Source: Escherichia phage slur07. From it: a stretch of 64,000 bases of DNA. Of the stretch, positions 3,332 to 21,660 are shown one piece after another. The stretch lies in sequence record NC_028780.1. One strand, 5' to 3'. The notes under the pieces are model-generated. The model worked only from the letters and a program-made list of their open reading frames with translations. It made no database searches and had not been told where the DNA came from. Numbering within the stretch: position 1 is the first letter of the stretch; each line of letters starts with the position of its first letter. Both the position numbers and the translations under genes were made by a program.

Positions 3332-3414
3332 TTTTAATAAAGCTTCTGTTCATAAAGATAAGAAGAAAGCGTTTAAAGAATCTAATCGCAAACAGAAACA
3401 TAAGGGGAAGGTCT

Positions 3415-3693
3415 ATGATTATTGATTCTCAGTCTGTGGTTCAATACACAATCAAAATTGATATTCTAGAAAAGCTATATAAGTTTCTACCAAATTTATA
3501 CCACTCAATTGTCAATGAATTAGTTGAAGAACTACATCTCGAGAATAATGATTTCTTGATTGGAACTTATAAAGACCTCTCAAAAGCAGGATATTTTTAC
3601 GTAATTCCAGCTCCAGGAAAAAGTATTGATGATGTATTAAAAACTATAATGATTTACGTCCATGATTATGAAATTGAAGATTATTTCGAATGA
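3415..3693 (+). CDS. arn: Arn, anti-restriction (McrBC inhibitor) protein
   Basis: 92 aa, same length and position (upstream of asiA) as T4 Arn; acidic C-terminus. Confidence 0.8.
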   Translation: MIIDSQSVVQYTIKIDILEKLYKFLPNLYHSIVNELVEELHLENNDFLIGTYKDLSKAGYFYVIPAPGKSIDDVLKTIMIYVHDYEIEDYFE

Positions 3694-3854
3694 GTCATAA
3701 TCTTGAAAAGGTAATCGAGCATAATGTAGCTCAGGAACGTAAGTCGTTCAAGGAATTCGTAGAAAAAATTTTTGAAGAAAATAACACAGACCAGTTTACA
3801 AATCAAGTGTCTGATGATATTATAATAAAGTCAACTAATTGAGTGGTATAGTTA

Positions 3855-4127
3855 ATGAATAAAAACATTGATACAGTTCGTGAAATTATTACTGTTGCGT
3901 CTATTTTGATTAAATTTTCCAGAGAAGATATTGTTGAGAATCGTGCTAATTTTATTGCATTTCTGAATGAGATTGGAGTAACGCATGAAGGTAGAAAGTT
4001 AAATCAGAATTCATTCCGTAAAATTGTTTCTGAATTAACCCAAGAAGATAAGAAAACCCTCATCGACGAATTCAACGAGGGTTTTGAGGGTGTATATCGA
4101 TATCTAGAGATGTATACGAACAAATAA
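3855..4127 (+). CDS. asiA: AsiA, anti-sigma70 factor
   Basis: 90 aa, essentially identical to T4 AsiA (MNKNIDTVREIITVASILIKFSREDIVENRANFIAFLNEIGVTHEGRKL...). Confidence 0.93.
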   Translation: MNKNIDTVREIITVASILIKFSREDIVENRANFIAFLNEIGVTHEGRKLNQNSFRKIVSELTQEDKKTLIDEFNEGFEGVYRYLEMYTNK

Positions 4128-4784
4128 TTATTTAGCCCTTCCTAATATTCTGGCCGCCTGAGCACATATTGATTCAAGGCGGTCATTACTTATATGATCA
4201 TTTCTATACCAGTACATGGTTATCGTTCCAGCATAGATATTATCCAAATTAAAATATGGACAACTGTACATATAGTTTATTTCGGGAGTAGGCTTTTTAG
4301 TTGGTAAAAAAGCAAATTTTGAGTTGGAATAATAATGACGTCCATTTAAATGAACTGTATATTCATCCATAGTTTTATCAACAGGATATCCTCCAAGTGA
4401 TTTTTCAGTTATTGTTGAAGGTAATCTTCCTTCATATGCTATAATATCAACAAAATAGTTTAAGTTTTTAGGGCGGAAAGAATACACCGCACTAAAGTCT
4501 GCCTCAGATGATATATGAACTATCTGGAGTTGTTCCAGGGCGACAGATTCAAAGCGTGCATTTCTTTCCTTTTCAATAATTTCACTGTATGTTTCATACT
4601 TTGATTGCTTATAGTACTCAAAGAAACTATCTCCCCTATACCAAACAATCGCCATCATAAATAAAAGAATTACGACAGCTACCCGGGAAGCAAGAACTTT
4701 CCCGGTAGCATTATCTTTGAACAAGCGATCTAGAACACCAAATAGAATATCAGAGGGCGAAAATGATATTCTAGGTGCTGCCAT
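4128..4784 (-). CDS. t: holin T
   Basis: 218 aa as in T4 holin; single N-proximal TMD with large periplasmic domain; convergent with asiA, stop codons abutting. Confidence 0.9.
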   Translation of the reverse strand: MAAPRISFSPSDILFGVLDRLFKDNATGKVLASRVAVVILLFMMAIVWYRGDSFFEYYKQSKYETYSEIIEKERNARFESVALEQLQIVHISSEADFSAVYSFRPKNLNYFVDIIAYEGRLPSTITEKSLGGYPVDKTMDEYTVHLNGRHYYSNSKFAFLPTKKPTPEINYMYSCPYFNLDNIYAGTITMYWYRNDHISNDRLESICAQAARILGRAK

Positions 4785-5938: not shown

Positions 5939-8900
5939 ACGAATATAAACGTTTGGGGCATTTATATTCATGTCAGAATAAGTGTCACCCGTTTGGAATC
6001 TCATTCGGCGTGCGGCATTAGTAATGATATCAAGAACTCCGTCAGCGGATTGTTTAATTCCGGTATCATTATCACCAAATGCTATACTATTTCCACCAAG
6101 TGCGTTATTGATATTAATACCAAATGAATTTGTTTGATTAATACCAGCTACAGTAGCATTATTTACTACAAAGCGGTTAGCTCCACCTGGAGTTTTTTCA
6201 AAGTAAGCAATATAGTTAGTTTCATCTGCAATTTCAATGCGGTTACCGCGAGAAGCATCACCAGCATGAAATATTCTCATATTTCTCGGGTTAGCACCAG
6301 ACTTATCAAAGTTAATACTTCCATTATTTTTGATGTTAAGGCCATTATAAAACTCTGATACCCCAGAAACGCTCATAGAGTTTGAAATAGTTACTTTACC
6401 TGAATCGATATTGATAGAAAAAGGTCTCAAGCTATTATAAGAACCGGAGGCTTTAGTTTTATCAGTATCGGTATTTTTATCTGTTAATAATATATGGAAC
6501 GTAGTACCATCATTATAAAACAGAGCAGCTGCAGAGCCACTTTCGTCGCCGTTAGATTTGTGACGGAATCCTATAGTAGTATTTGCCACAAAAGTTGCAT
6601 TTGTAGAAATATTAGAACTACCTGCATCAAAAACGCCTGAGCTATTATTAAGAAGTTTAAAAACACGACCTTTAACAGTATCTACAGGAAGCTCTTCTAC
6701 TGGTGATTGTGTAGGCCCATATAATCCATGAACTACTACTGAAGCGTTTTCTGAAGTGCTATATTCTAATGTAAGTCTATTTAAATAAGTGCCACAATTA
6801 ATATAAACATCATACTCATCGCCTGAGGTATTAATATACGCAATATCTTTAATAGCATCTGTTTCGCGTTGCCATAAAACACCATTAATTCCTTTAGGGC
6901 TGTTATTACCTGAACGCAATACAATTTCATTAATTGTTGCTTGTCTAAAAGTACCAACGTTAAATCCAGAACCACCAGTAATTTTAAATTGAACTGTAGC
7001 CACACCTTGAGGCATAGTTACTGTTGCCAATTTATACCAACCGCTATCGACAGAATAATTAATCCAGCCGGTAGTTACTTTACGGTCTAAAGTAGTGTTT
7101 AAGTTAGCAAAATTACCAGAACCGTTGGTAATATTACCGTCAGTTCCTAGTTGGGCATTTCCGACTTTAAGAGGTTTACTGATTGACACGAAATTATCGC
7201 TTATAACAAGACCGTGTCCATAAGATTGACTATAAAGCGATAAATCACTTCCAGCGCCACCAAGACCAACATACCACGATCTAATTCCAGCTTTAGAACC
7301 TTGTAAATAATTAGCAGAAGAAGATGAAGGAGAATCTAGAGTAAGCGCTGCATTACGTTCATTAATAGTTACTGGACATATCATTTTAATAGTTTTAAGA
7401 CTATTACTTACTTGTAATAATCCTGTACCAGATCCAGAATCTCCTAAATGAACATCATGCGACATTTTAACTGTGCCGGTGTTCAGTTCTATTATCAATG
7501 GTCTAAGATTACTTATACCACCTGATTCTCCAGCATCTTTAAGAGTTGGAATAATATAAAAGTTACTTTCAGAACGACGGAAAATTGCGCCGTATTCAGC
7601 ATTCCAAATTCTTAATGCGTCAGCTGTTCCACCAATTTTTACTTGGCCTGTAATAGAAGAACCACCTTGGACAAACAAACCGTTAGACATAGTAACATTG
7701 CCACCAAAAGAACCTGTACCGGAGGCACTTATATTACCAAGGCCTATGATATGGCCTGTTTCGACAGTTCCGTTAAATTTAAAGTTAACCGGACCTACTG
7801 TTTGACCTGACGCAGGATTAGTACGTTGAGCGTAGAAATAATAACCTTGTGAATCTGAAACTTCGAATACAGTTTCTCTATTACCCTTTTCAGCGTTAAA
7901 TGAATTACCCCATGCTTTAATGGTTACGGTATTTTTATTCTGACCATTACGAGTACCTGCATCCCAGTTAATGGTTTTGGTACCATCTACACCGGAAGGA
8001 GCTTTAAACGATAAAGCATTAGTATTATCATCACCATTTAAAAACAAGCCCGTACGCATAGAAATACGCTGGGTGGAGTTAATTGTTCCGTCTGCTCTAA
8101 TAGCAACGCTATTAGAACCGGTTTTAATATCTAAAATGCCAGGCTCAACAAGAAGCCCATCACCCATACTAACGGACATACGACCTGTACCACGGAAATA
8201 GTGATACATCTTAGCATTGCTGCTATATCCGATATGAGTCTGTCCATCGCCGTTATTATTACCATCAACATCGGTACGCGCAGTAAACATTGCTTGGTTA
8301 TTATTTGGGAAATCCCAAGTAGAACCGGAATCTCGACTATAACCAACCATCAATTTTTTAGTACTATTAATACCATTATTCAAAATGGTAGCAGATGAAA
8401 TACCGTTAGCCATCAGGTCATAAACGCCATCGCGGACCCATTTAATACCGGTATCGTTATCGCCAATCGCAATACCAATAGAAATTGCAGAATCTAAAGG
8501 ATAACGACCATTTGTACCACTATCAGGAAGACCTACAGAAATAGATTTACCTGCAGTAATACGTCCAGAGGTATCAAACGCCCACTGGAAAGACGAAGGT
8601 CCTACACCAGTCCACCAAGAAATTTCTTGCGGCTTACCTTTTCGACAATCAACAATTTCATGGAAAATACTTGATGCGCTTGATGCACGTAATTTACGCA
8701 AATAGTTCAATCCATTTGTAGTATTGTCGGAACCATCGGCCGGTGGGTTATAAACCCAGGTAGGTAAAGAAACAATGTCATAACCCGCGTCATTATTCGG
8801 GATAAAGGTTTTCGTGCTTATGTTAATATTTTTTGTGTTGACACGTGGCGCAGAAACTACCCCAGTAGCCGAATTAATATTACCAGAAGCAGAAATATTT

Positions 8901-19307: not shown

Positions 19308-19550
19308 ATGAGATTACAACGTCAGAGCATCAAAGATTCGGAAGTTAGAGGTAAATGGTATTTTAATATCATCGGTAAAGATTCTGAACTTGTTGAAAAA
19401 GCTGAACATCTTTTACGTGATATGGGATGGGAAGATGAATGCGATGGATGTCCTCTTTATGAAGACGGAGAAAGCGCAGGATTCTGGATTTACCATTCTG
19501 ACGTTGAACAGTTTAAAGCTGATTGGAAAATTGTGAAAAAGTCTGTTTAA
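19308..19550 (+). CDS. hypothetical protein (frd.1-like position)
   Basis: 80-aa ORF with SD GAGGAG upstream. Confidence 0.55.
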   Translation: MRLQRQSIKDSEVRGKWYFNIIGKDSELVEKAEHLLRDMGWEDECDGCPLYEDGESAGFWIYHSDVEQFKADWKIVKKSV

Positions 19551-19560
19551 GGAAAATAAT

Positions 19561-20387
<827 letters not shown>

Positions 20388-20406
20388 AATAACGCGTGGC
20401 GGAAAT

Positions 20407-20754
20407 ATGAATTTTAATTATTACCCTATTCTATTAGAAAAAGACACGAAACAACCAAAATGGCAGGGTCCTCAGTTTATTAAAGGTGTCTATCAATTAG
20501 TAGTTCCTAAAGATAAGATTTATAGTAGTTGTTTTACTGAATCCGCTTGCAGTATTTTCGGTAATAGTTCTCCGTATTGGAATTTTGACATAAAGTTGGA
20601 TAGAAATATCGATATTTGGTTGAAAGCTATGGATATTGGTAATATCACGTTTGATGAGAATAATTATCATATTATTGGTCGCTTTTCCAAACGCGGTAAA
20701 GAATTATATTTCACGCCTGAAATTGAGAGAAAATTTGATGCTAAACCGTATTGA
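20407..20754 (+). CDS. hypothetical protein inserted between frd and td
   Basis: 115-aa ORF with no counterpart I can place in T4, where frd and td abut. Confidence 0.55.
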   Translation: MNFNYYPILLEKDTKQPKWQGPQFIKGVYQLVVPKDKIYSSCFTESACSIFGNSSPYWNFDIKLDRNIDIWLKAMDIGNITFDENNYHIIGRFSKRGKELYFTPEIERKFDAKPY

Positions 20755-20799
20755 TTATTTAGCTTCATAAAATGTATTATAATTTATATAAGGTACTAA

Positions 20800-21660
20800 A
20801 TGAAACAATACCAAGATTTAATTAAAGACATTTTTGAAAATGGCTATGAAACCGATGACCGAACGGGCACAGGAACAATTGCTTTGTTCGGTACTAAATT
20901 ACGCTGGGATTTAAGTAAAGGTTTTCCTGCAGTAACAACTAAGAAGCTCGCCTGGAATGCATGCATTGCTGAGCTTTTATGGTTTATTTCCGGTTCTACC
21001 AATGTTAATGATTTACGTCTTCGCACTCATGGTAGTCTTATTCAAGGCAAAACTATTTGGGACGATAACTATGAAAACCAGGCTAAAGACCTAGGATATC
21101 ATAGTGGTGAACTTGGTCCTATATACGGTAAACAATGGCGTGATTTCGGTGGTGTGGATCAATTAGTTGAAACTATTGATCGTATTAAAAAATTACCAAC
21201 TGATCGACGTCAAATCGTTTCAGCATGGAATCCAGCTGAAATCAATCAAATGGCATTACCGCCCTGTCATATGTTCTATCAGTTTAATGTGCGTAATGGT
21301 TATCTTGATTTACAATGGTACCAAAGAAGTGTAGATGTTTTCTTGGGATTGCCATTCAACATTGCCTCGTACGCTGCCTTGACGCATATTGTGGCTAAGA
21401 TGTGTAATCTTATCCCAGGAGATTTGATATTTTCTGGTGGTAATACTCACATCTATATGAATCATACTGAGCAATGTAAAGAAATTTTACGTCGTGAGCC
21501 TAAAGAACTATGTGAACTTAAAATTGATTGGCCTATAGAGTTTGGAAATTGTGACACCGAAACACAGCTTTACTGGTTAACTGAATACATGAAACCGAAA
21601 GATTTTATCCTTGAAAATTATGAATCGCATCCAGCAATTAAAGGGAAAATGGCAATATGA
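20800..21660 (+). CDS. td: thymidylate synthase, intron-less
   Basis: 286 aa continuous ORF matching T4 Td exons joined; active-site region PPCHMFYQF present; no group I intron. Confidence 0.93.

Follow-up and report, generated by a model that had tools for sequence, protein, structure and literature searches.

A conserved gene lies between frd and td

The window examined here, a 64,000-nt stretch of the Escherichia phage slur07 genome (NC_028780.1), carries an additional reading frame between the dihydrofolate reductase gene frd (nucleotides 19806 to 20387, 193 aa) and the thymidylate synthase gene td (20800 to 21660, 286 aa). Both flanking genes were taken from the ORF listing and named after near-identical phages (99.8% for frd), and the td reading frame is intronless and uninterrupted. 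The frame between them encodes 115 aa, begins with an ATG, and spans nucleotides 20407 to 20754 (348 bp including the stop codon). It is followed by a 45-bp spacer (20755 to 20799) that extends from the ORF stop up to the td start and contains the td ribosome-binding site AAGG (20790 to 20793). All of these features are on the + strand. A preliminary description of this DNA had reported that such an ORF and spacer separate frd from td, and its coordinates are right. Its contrast with T4 (NC_000866) is equally sound: the 115-aa gene is absent there, and frd and td are directly joined by a 4-nt overlap with no gene between them. The T4 td gene contains an intron with I-TevI.

Judging from sequence conservation, the 115-aa ORF is a real gene and a chance reading frame is ruled out, because it has a full-length match to PHROG 1928, only synonymous changes relative to Bas37, and homologues that keep its length and position. 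The PHROG 1928 profile match (E = 1e-35, 123 bits) places residues 4 to 111 on positions 2 to 125 of 126. The orthologue in phage Bas37 (KarlGJung), bas37_0070, carries six nucleotide differences, all of them synonymous, with no amino-acid change, and homologues with as little as 26% identity are unchanged in length and position. When 1.84 billion representative proteins were searched exhaustively with an HMM, 22 clusters were recovered, comprising 20 of 95 to 116 aa and two spurious ones, compared with only three close clusters found by a word-indexed search. The spurious clusters (P0021 and P0023) were rejected as homologues and consist of repetitive eukaryotic sequences.

The alternative that this interval is non-coding spacer DNA left open by chance could appeal to the lack of a functional annotation for the gene anywhere, and to the weak Shine–Dalgarno sequence (GGCGGAAAT) ahead of its ATG. 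It is countered by the extent of the profile match, by the similar-length clusters among the 22 recovered, by the strictly synonymous divergence from Bas37, and by the increase in the pLDDT of the structure model from 59 to 92 once homologues were added. The conservation pattern has already refuted this alternative, to which we give practically no chance of being correct.

The 115-aa gene is the most common occupant of the frd–td junction

A tblastn search of 50,697 phage records with the 115-aa protein identified it in 553 records, 361 of them at an identity of at least 90% and 192 below 60%. The first set includes T2, T6, RB6, RB14, RB32, and RB51, with the gene annotated as RB32ORF229c in RB14 and RB51, and the second consists of phages of Klebsiella, Enterobacter, Kosakonia, Erwinia, and Citrobacter. 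Empty junctions were counted with a 44-bp probe that matches only the uninterrupted T4-type frd/td junction. This probe was used in place of a 141-bp T4 junction query for megablast, which was dropped because pieces were joined and the junction classes became inseparable. The direct junction is present in only 32 records, which include T4 and its laboratory variants, RB55, RB59, HY03, SG1, G28, F1, FN, JEP6, FL12, FL18, vB_EcoM_112, and G2133. A third junction class, exemplified by JK08, pSs-1, and JS98, contains an unrelated 68-aa gene (about 135 records at an identity of at least 90%).

Among Tequatrovirus-like records, the slot is therefore occupied by the 115-aa gene in 361, by the 68-aa gene in about 135, and by no gene in 32, which makes the 115-aa gene the prevailing state (about 68%) and leaves T4 with the least frequent one. 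The preliminary description had read the ORF as cargo inserted into a conserved nucleotide-metabolism operon. This reading does not hold up when the junction is compared across T4-like genomes, where the gene, present in T2 and T6 among others, is the commonest state and the empty junction the exception. The description itself had named conservation of the ORF here in the majority of T-even phages as the finding that would overturn its reading, and the comparison yields just that.

The 68-aa gene of JK08 was also considered as a truncated allele of the 115-aa gene, and this was rejected because the two sequences are unrelated. The 68-aa gene is located at nucleotides 2568 to 2774 of the JK08 sequence, 3148 to 3354 of P545, and 3673 to 3873 of the loci L014 and L015. 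Its records belong to Tequatrovirus or Dhakavirus, both it and the 115-aa family are present in Marfavirus and CIP9-type Enterobacter phages, and relatives at 43% identity are present in Phapecoctavirus genomes.

Homologues occupy the same slot in other genera

A homologue of the 115-aa gene also separates frd from td in Kosakonia phage 305 (Kanagawavirus), Erwinia phage Cronus (Roskildevirus), and the Klebsiella phages KP1 (Jiaodavirus) and P545 (Marfavirus), and likewise in the Enterobacter phage CIP9-type lineage. Such homologues, which represent at least five further genera of the Tevenvirinae, exhibit 26 to 46% identity and are often accompanied by a tandem paralogue. The adjoining ORF was recognized as a paralogue by hhalign with a probability of 98% for 305, 98.5% for P545, and 90% for Cronus, and no paralogue was found elsewhere in the 64-kb window. 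In all 14 of the IMG/VR loci compared (26 to 100% identity), Frd is encoded directly upstream of the homologue and Td 0 to 400 bp downstream. Identity across genera is 32 to 46% for the ORF, 44 to 46% for Frd, and 75 to 80% for Td. The divergence of the ORF is thus close to that of Frd, which fits co-descent with the flanking genes.

This arrangement is also compatible with a thymidylate/folate accessory function, wherein the protein would be a small partner of Frd, Td, or the dNTP-synthesizing complex that tunes assembly or activity. Consistent with such a role, the gene is found between frd and td at every locus compared, and its paralogues remain in the same slot. In addition, the ORF overlaps its neighbors in other genera (by 1 nt in 305, and by 17 nt and 8 nt in KP1), which suggests translational coupling. 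However, T4 makes dTMP normally without the gene, which is also missing from about 30% of Tequatrovirus-like records. Moreover, T4-like genomes are collinear in general, and synteny is therefore no proof of a functional tie to Frd or Td and can be explained without one. We consider a metabolic partnership unlikely.

The T4 junction can be derived by a 416-bp deletion

Alignment of the two sequences reveals that T4 corresponds to the window minus exactly 416 bp, with the alignment break at the left copy of a direct repeat. This left copy, TAAATGAAA(TAA), spans nucleotides 20381 to 20392 (+ strand), and its 9-mer (20381 to 20389) lies in the last codons of frd and overlaps the frd stop. The right copy, TAAATGAAA(CAA), spans nucleotides 20797 to 20808 (+ strand), and its 9-mer (20797 to 20805) includes the td start codon. 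When extended to 12 nt, the two copies identified by the repeat search are identical at 11 of 12 positions and are spaced 416 nt apart. Excision of one repeat copy along with the interval (416 bp) yields the T4 junction exactly, including its ATGA overlap.

The most economical reading, by parsimony, is that T4 carries the derived state and has undergone a 416-bp deletion. Loss in T4 is favored because the missing segment is bounded by repeats and because of the phylogenetic spread of the gene. By its sequence, TAAATGAAA is a common gene-junction motif of the stop-start-Lys type, with seven copies on the + strand of the window versus 1.3 expected, and the presence of two copies at these positions is therefore unsurprising. 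A point against loss is a two-codon mini-ORF, ATG AAA TAA (20384 to 20392, + strand), overlapping the frd stop. Its two codons are the same as those with which td begins, and it could mark an old insertion into an frd/td overlap. This mini-ORF may be either a part of the junction motif or the footprint of an older overlap between the two genes.

Other differences are evident in the same region. The td intron with I-TevI is present in T4, JK08, and Bas37, and its presence is uncorrelated with that of the 115-aa gene. A link between gene loss and the td intron through co-conversion was considered and rejected, given that all pairings are seen: only the intron in T4, both in Bas37, only the 115-aa gene in the window, and, in JK08, an intron-containing td alongside the 68-aa gene. 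The same operon differs from that of T4 by another indel. An 81-aa ORF (19561 to 19806, + strand), the counterpart of bas37_0072, is located after frd.1 (19308 to 19550) and directly adjoins the start of frd, where the gap in T4 is only 71 bp long. In the IMG/VR loci L012 and L013, td (3392 to 4249) is 85 to 86% identical to that of the window, whereas the adjoining ORF and nrdA are 98 to 100% identical. Presumably, the td of these two loci is a mosaic allele that has been exchanged by recombination.

The 115-aa protein is predicted to form a small β-barrel

No Pfam match was obtained for any of the 23 family members with E values up to 10, and PADLOC and PDB sequence searches with the 115-aa protein likewise returned no match. 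No Rfam family was matched (best E 0.12, irrelevant), and no mention of this gene was found in the literature on RB32ORF229c and “td.1” or in reviews of T4. The preliminary description had presented the ORF as one without a known function, and this part of it stands after sequence and profile searches, although the protein does belong to a conserved phage family, PHROG 1928.

An AlphaFold run with four sequences was poor (pLDDT 59), and a run with 23 homologues was used instead (pLDDT 92, pTM 0.84). The predicted fold is a small β-barrel with a single helix in the order β1-β2-β3-helix-β4-β5, wherein strands are modeled at residues 6 to 12, 27 to 34, 38 to 40, 48 to 50, 62 to 64, 80 to 82, 86 to 96, and 99 to 104, and the helix at residues 68 to 76. 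Structure matches in BFVD were uncharacterized proteins of T4-like phages only. OB folds are frequent among the weak structural matches. In the 23-sequence alignment, residues Q16, W19, G27, G91, K95, and G97 are invariant and L9, Y29, N79, F93, and F102 are nearly so, and conservation does not extend to any acidic, His, or Cys position. The 115-aa protein is about 13 kDa, and the family is mildly basic (pI 6.8 to 9.4) and rich in aromatic residues.

The barrel, the lack of catalytic motifs, and the aromatic and basic profile together point to a binding module rather than an enzyme. From the model, the protein is most likely a non-enzymatic, OB-like binding protein, with a likely binding face formed by Q16, W19, Y29, and N79 along with the G91-R-F-x-K-x-G97 hairpin. 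Such a barrel, expressed with the frd-td-nrdA unit, could perhaps bind a nucleic acid or a protein partner.

The homing-endonuclease annotation is not supported

GenBank records of the BASEL collection label the gene as a putative homing endonuclease. This label corresponds to a different history for the locus, in which an ancestral frd/td overlap was invaded by mobile cargo or a free-standing homing endonuclease. The gene is indeed absent in T4, and the occupancy of the slot varies. The 9-bp direct repeat borders the segment, as does a 9-nt inverted repeat (TATATAAAT/ATTTATATA), and the string GVYQL in the protein resembles GIYQI of I-TevI. These features carry little weight on closer inspection. 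The direct repeat is the common junction motif described above, and, by our own estimate, chance alone would produce about two perfect 9-nt inverted repeats per 800 bp of this AT-rich composition. The inverted repeat is thus within chance expectation, and no mobility gene, as might be expected of an insertion cassette, was found at the locus. Moreover, the gene occupies one slot in at least six genera with a divergence like that of Frd.

The protein itself also provides no indication of nuclease activity. None of the 23 members matches a Pfam nuclease family, and hhalign against I-TevI yields a probability of 0.45% over seven residues. GIY-YIG enzymes have their GIY and YIG motifs 10 to 11 residues apart and conserved catalytic Arg, Glu, and Asn residues. 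Of these features, the 23-sequence alignment retains only G-[IV]-Y, without a YIG motif or the catalytic set. HNH, His-Cys box, and LAGLIDADG motifs were sought with the same outcome: none was found, the family lacks any invariant His, Cys, Asp, or Glu, and no Pfam family is matched. The model is a single barrel, in which neither the α/β catalytic fold of GIY-YIG enzymes nor a DNA-binding domain was found, and the fold matches do not include a nuclease domain. At 115 aa, the protein is too small to accommodate both a catalytic and a DNA-binding domain. The mobile-endonuclease reading is largely refuted and, in our judgment, very improbable. The BASEL label is without support and should not be propagated.

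The spacer contains a candidate MotA-dependent promoter

The preliminary description had noted a promoter-like element in the spacer. A sigma-70 scan identified TTGATT-18-TATTAT (9 of 12 positions) at nucleotides 20751 to 20780, but the region contains 11 sigma-70-like sites versus 9.8 expected from shuffled sequence, and this site is therefore not distinguishable from chance. What remains of the observation is a motif of the MotA type. MotA boxes, (a/t)(a/t)(a/t)TGCTT(t/c)A, are centered near −30 and separated by 11 to 13 bp from a downstream −10 element of the form TAnnnT. The spacer contains a candidate MotA-dependent middle promoter for td at nucleotides 20761 to 20785 (+ strand), composed of AGCTTCA (20761 to 20767), 12 nt, and TAATTT (20780 to 20785). 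In full, the site is TTTAGCTTCA, 12 nt, TAATTT. The TGCTT core is mismatched at its first base (A rather than T), and a TATAAT sequence at nucleotides 20778 to 20783 overlaps the TAATTT −10 element.

With 12 matches on the + strand of the window versus 3.0 ± 1.7 in shuffled sequences, the relaxed MotA pattern, NGCTTYA-N11-13-TANNNT, shows a four-fold enrichment. These sites, at positions 8000, 12938, 13382, 16077, 18742, 20761, 31646, 32887, 41788, 50815, 51965, and 62164, can be regarded as candidate middle promoters. On the − strand of the window, the pattern has four matches.

The spacer and its promoter-like element are identical in six of seven related loci, including where td is only 85% identical. 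In phage REP1, a 30-bp indel removes the entire promoter-like element, and the spacer is wholly absent from T4 and from the 68-aa class. Because REP1, T4, and the 68-aa class manage without the element, a promoter in the spacer, if there is one, would be an optional supplement to read-through from upstream. The REP1 indel (L004 nucleotides 1938 to 1954 versus window nucleotides 20758 to 20788) leaves the td ribosome-binding site in place.

The gene is dispensable and neutral on the strains surveyed

The bas37_0070 protein is 100% identical to the window protein, and the layout of the two loci is equal. Transposon insertions in Bas37 have been mapped in the HIDEN-SEQ preprint (10.1101/2025.11.20.689424), and the data record hits at 34 of 36 TA sites of bas37_0070, which is classified as “Non-essential” on E. 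coli K-12. Fitness values on four clinical isolates are close to neutral, with log2FC of +0.40 on CFT073, +0.18 on CFE299, −0.09 on CFE303, and +0.16 on CFE331 (p = 0.55 to 0.88) (10.1101/2025.11.20.689424). Mean insertion counts on K-12 are 372 for bas37_0070, 117 for frd, and about 30 for td in the same source, and disruption of the gene therefore does not phenocopy the loss of td. In these data, insertions in td and frd lower fitness on K-12 and insertions in the 115-aa gene do not, which again speaks against a metabolic partnership with Frd or Td. In the same preprint (10.1101/2025.11.20.689424), insertions in Bas37 td (bas37_0068) and in the intron endonuclease are enriched on CFT073, CFE299, and CFE331 relative to K-12, with log2FC of about +1.0 to +2.6. 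Phage td thus matters more on K-12 BW25113 than on these three isolates.

The preliminary description had further proposed that this is a typical place for accessory or anti-defense genes. The gene is accessory in that it is dispensable and variably present, but it is not newly inserted cargo. The anti-defense proposal would have the protein bind and neutralize a host immune protein or signaling molecule that is limited to certain strains, as an anti-defense or host-takeover factor. A small, non-enzymatic, dispensable protein with a patchy distribution among close relatives has the usual profile of T-even counter-defense proteins. Counter-defense genes usually turn over quickly, whereas this gene has a fixed place across genera and a Frd-like divergence, and its protein has no PADLOC or Pfam match. 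As a precedent, nrdC.1 and bas37_0203, which also are small proteins without recognizable domains, are inhibitors of Septu and Druantia, according to the preprint (10.1101/2025.11.20.689424). However, the same data record no fitness effect of the identical Bas37 gene on K-12 BW25113 or on the four clinical E. coli isolates that exposed other anti-defense genes. For the hosts surveyed, the anti-defense suggestion is left without support by these results, and we consider it quite unlikely overall.

An inherited accessory gene that T4 has probably lost

Taken together, the observations are probably best explained by a small accessory gene of the Tevenvirinae that is vertically inherited, has its home in the frd–td slot, and was lost in T4. 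The ancestral slot would have held one or two paralogues and, in some lineages, the unrelated 68-aa gene as well, and Tequatrovirus lineages would have kept the 115-aa gene, the 68-aa gene, or neither. The frd/td overlap of T4 would have arisen by the 416-bp deletion between the two copies of TAAATGAAA. Transcripts of the pre-replicative frd-td-nrdA unit would include the gene, the spacer would probably add a MotA-type middle promoter for td, and the gene product, as an OB-like barrel, most likely works by binding.

Hundreds of phage genomes already list this gene as encoding a hypothetical protein, and it belongs to an existing PHROG. The discovery value of the locus is therefore small, and the outcomes are mainly corrective. 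T4 should be viewed not as the reference state for the frd–td junction but as a probable deletion derivative, and absence from T4 is thus a poor test for inserted cargo. The slot is better regarded as an ancestral cluster of small genes that have been differentially lost. The confident structure model, the conserved surface residues, and the dispensability of the gene provide a starting point for a search for its ligand.

Comparison with known genes and folds

The window gene is the same gene as RB32ORF229c, the hypothetical protein of T2 and T6, and bas37_0070, with 99 to 100% protein identity. The gaps to frd (19 bp) and td (45 bp) also are equal in RB32ORF229c and bas37_0070. Some relatives differ in being one codon shorter (114 aa) or in having a spacer that lacks 30 bp.

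The tandem paralogues of 305 (Kanagawavirus, 119 aa), P545 (Marfavirus, 117 aa), and Cronus (Roskildevirus, gp170, 144 aa) have the motifs LLE.D..Q.KW, HG[IV]Y.L, GN, and GRF.K.G...F in common with the window gene, and they share its genomic slot between frd and td. They differ by an insertion of about 20 residues past the KW motif, and the second copy is absent from Tequatrovirus.

The likeness to I-TevI, the GIY-YIG enzyme of T4, is limited to KGVYQLV versus SGIYQIK and to a T-even location near td. In contrast to I-TevI, the 115-aa protein has no YIG, no catalytic Arg/Glu/Asn set, and no DNA-binding domain, and it belongs to another fold class. A possible parallel is with OB-fold nucleic-acid-binding domains (for example, Teb1, Cdc13, HIN, S1, RPA, and SSB), which share the strand-helix order of the 115-aa model. 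The conserved aromatic and basic residues of the model are positioned on the loop after β1, on β2, and on the β4-β5 hairpin.
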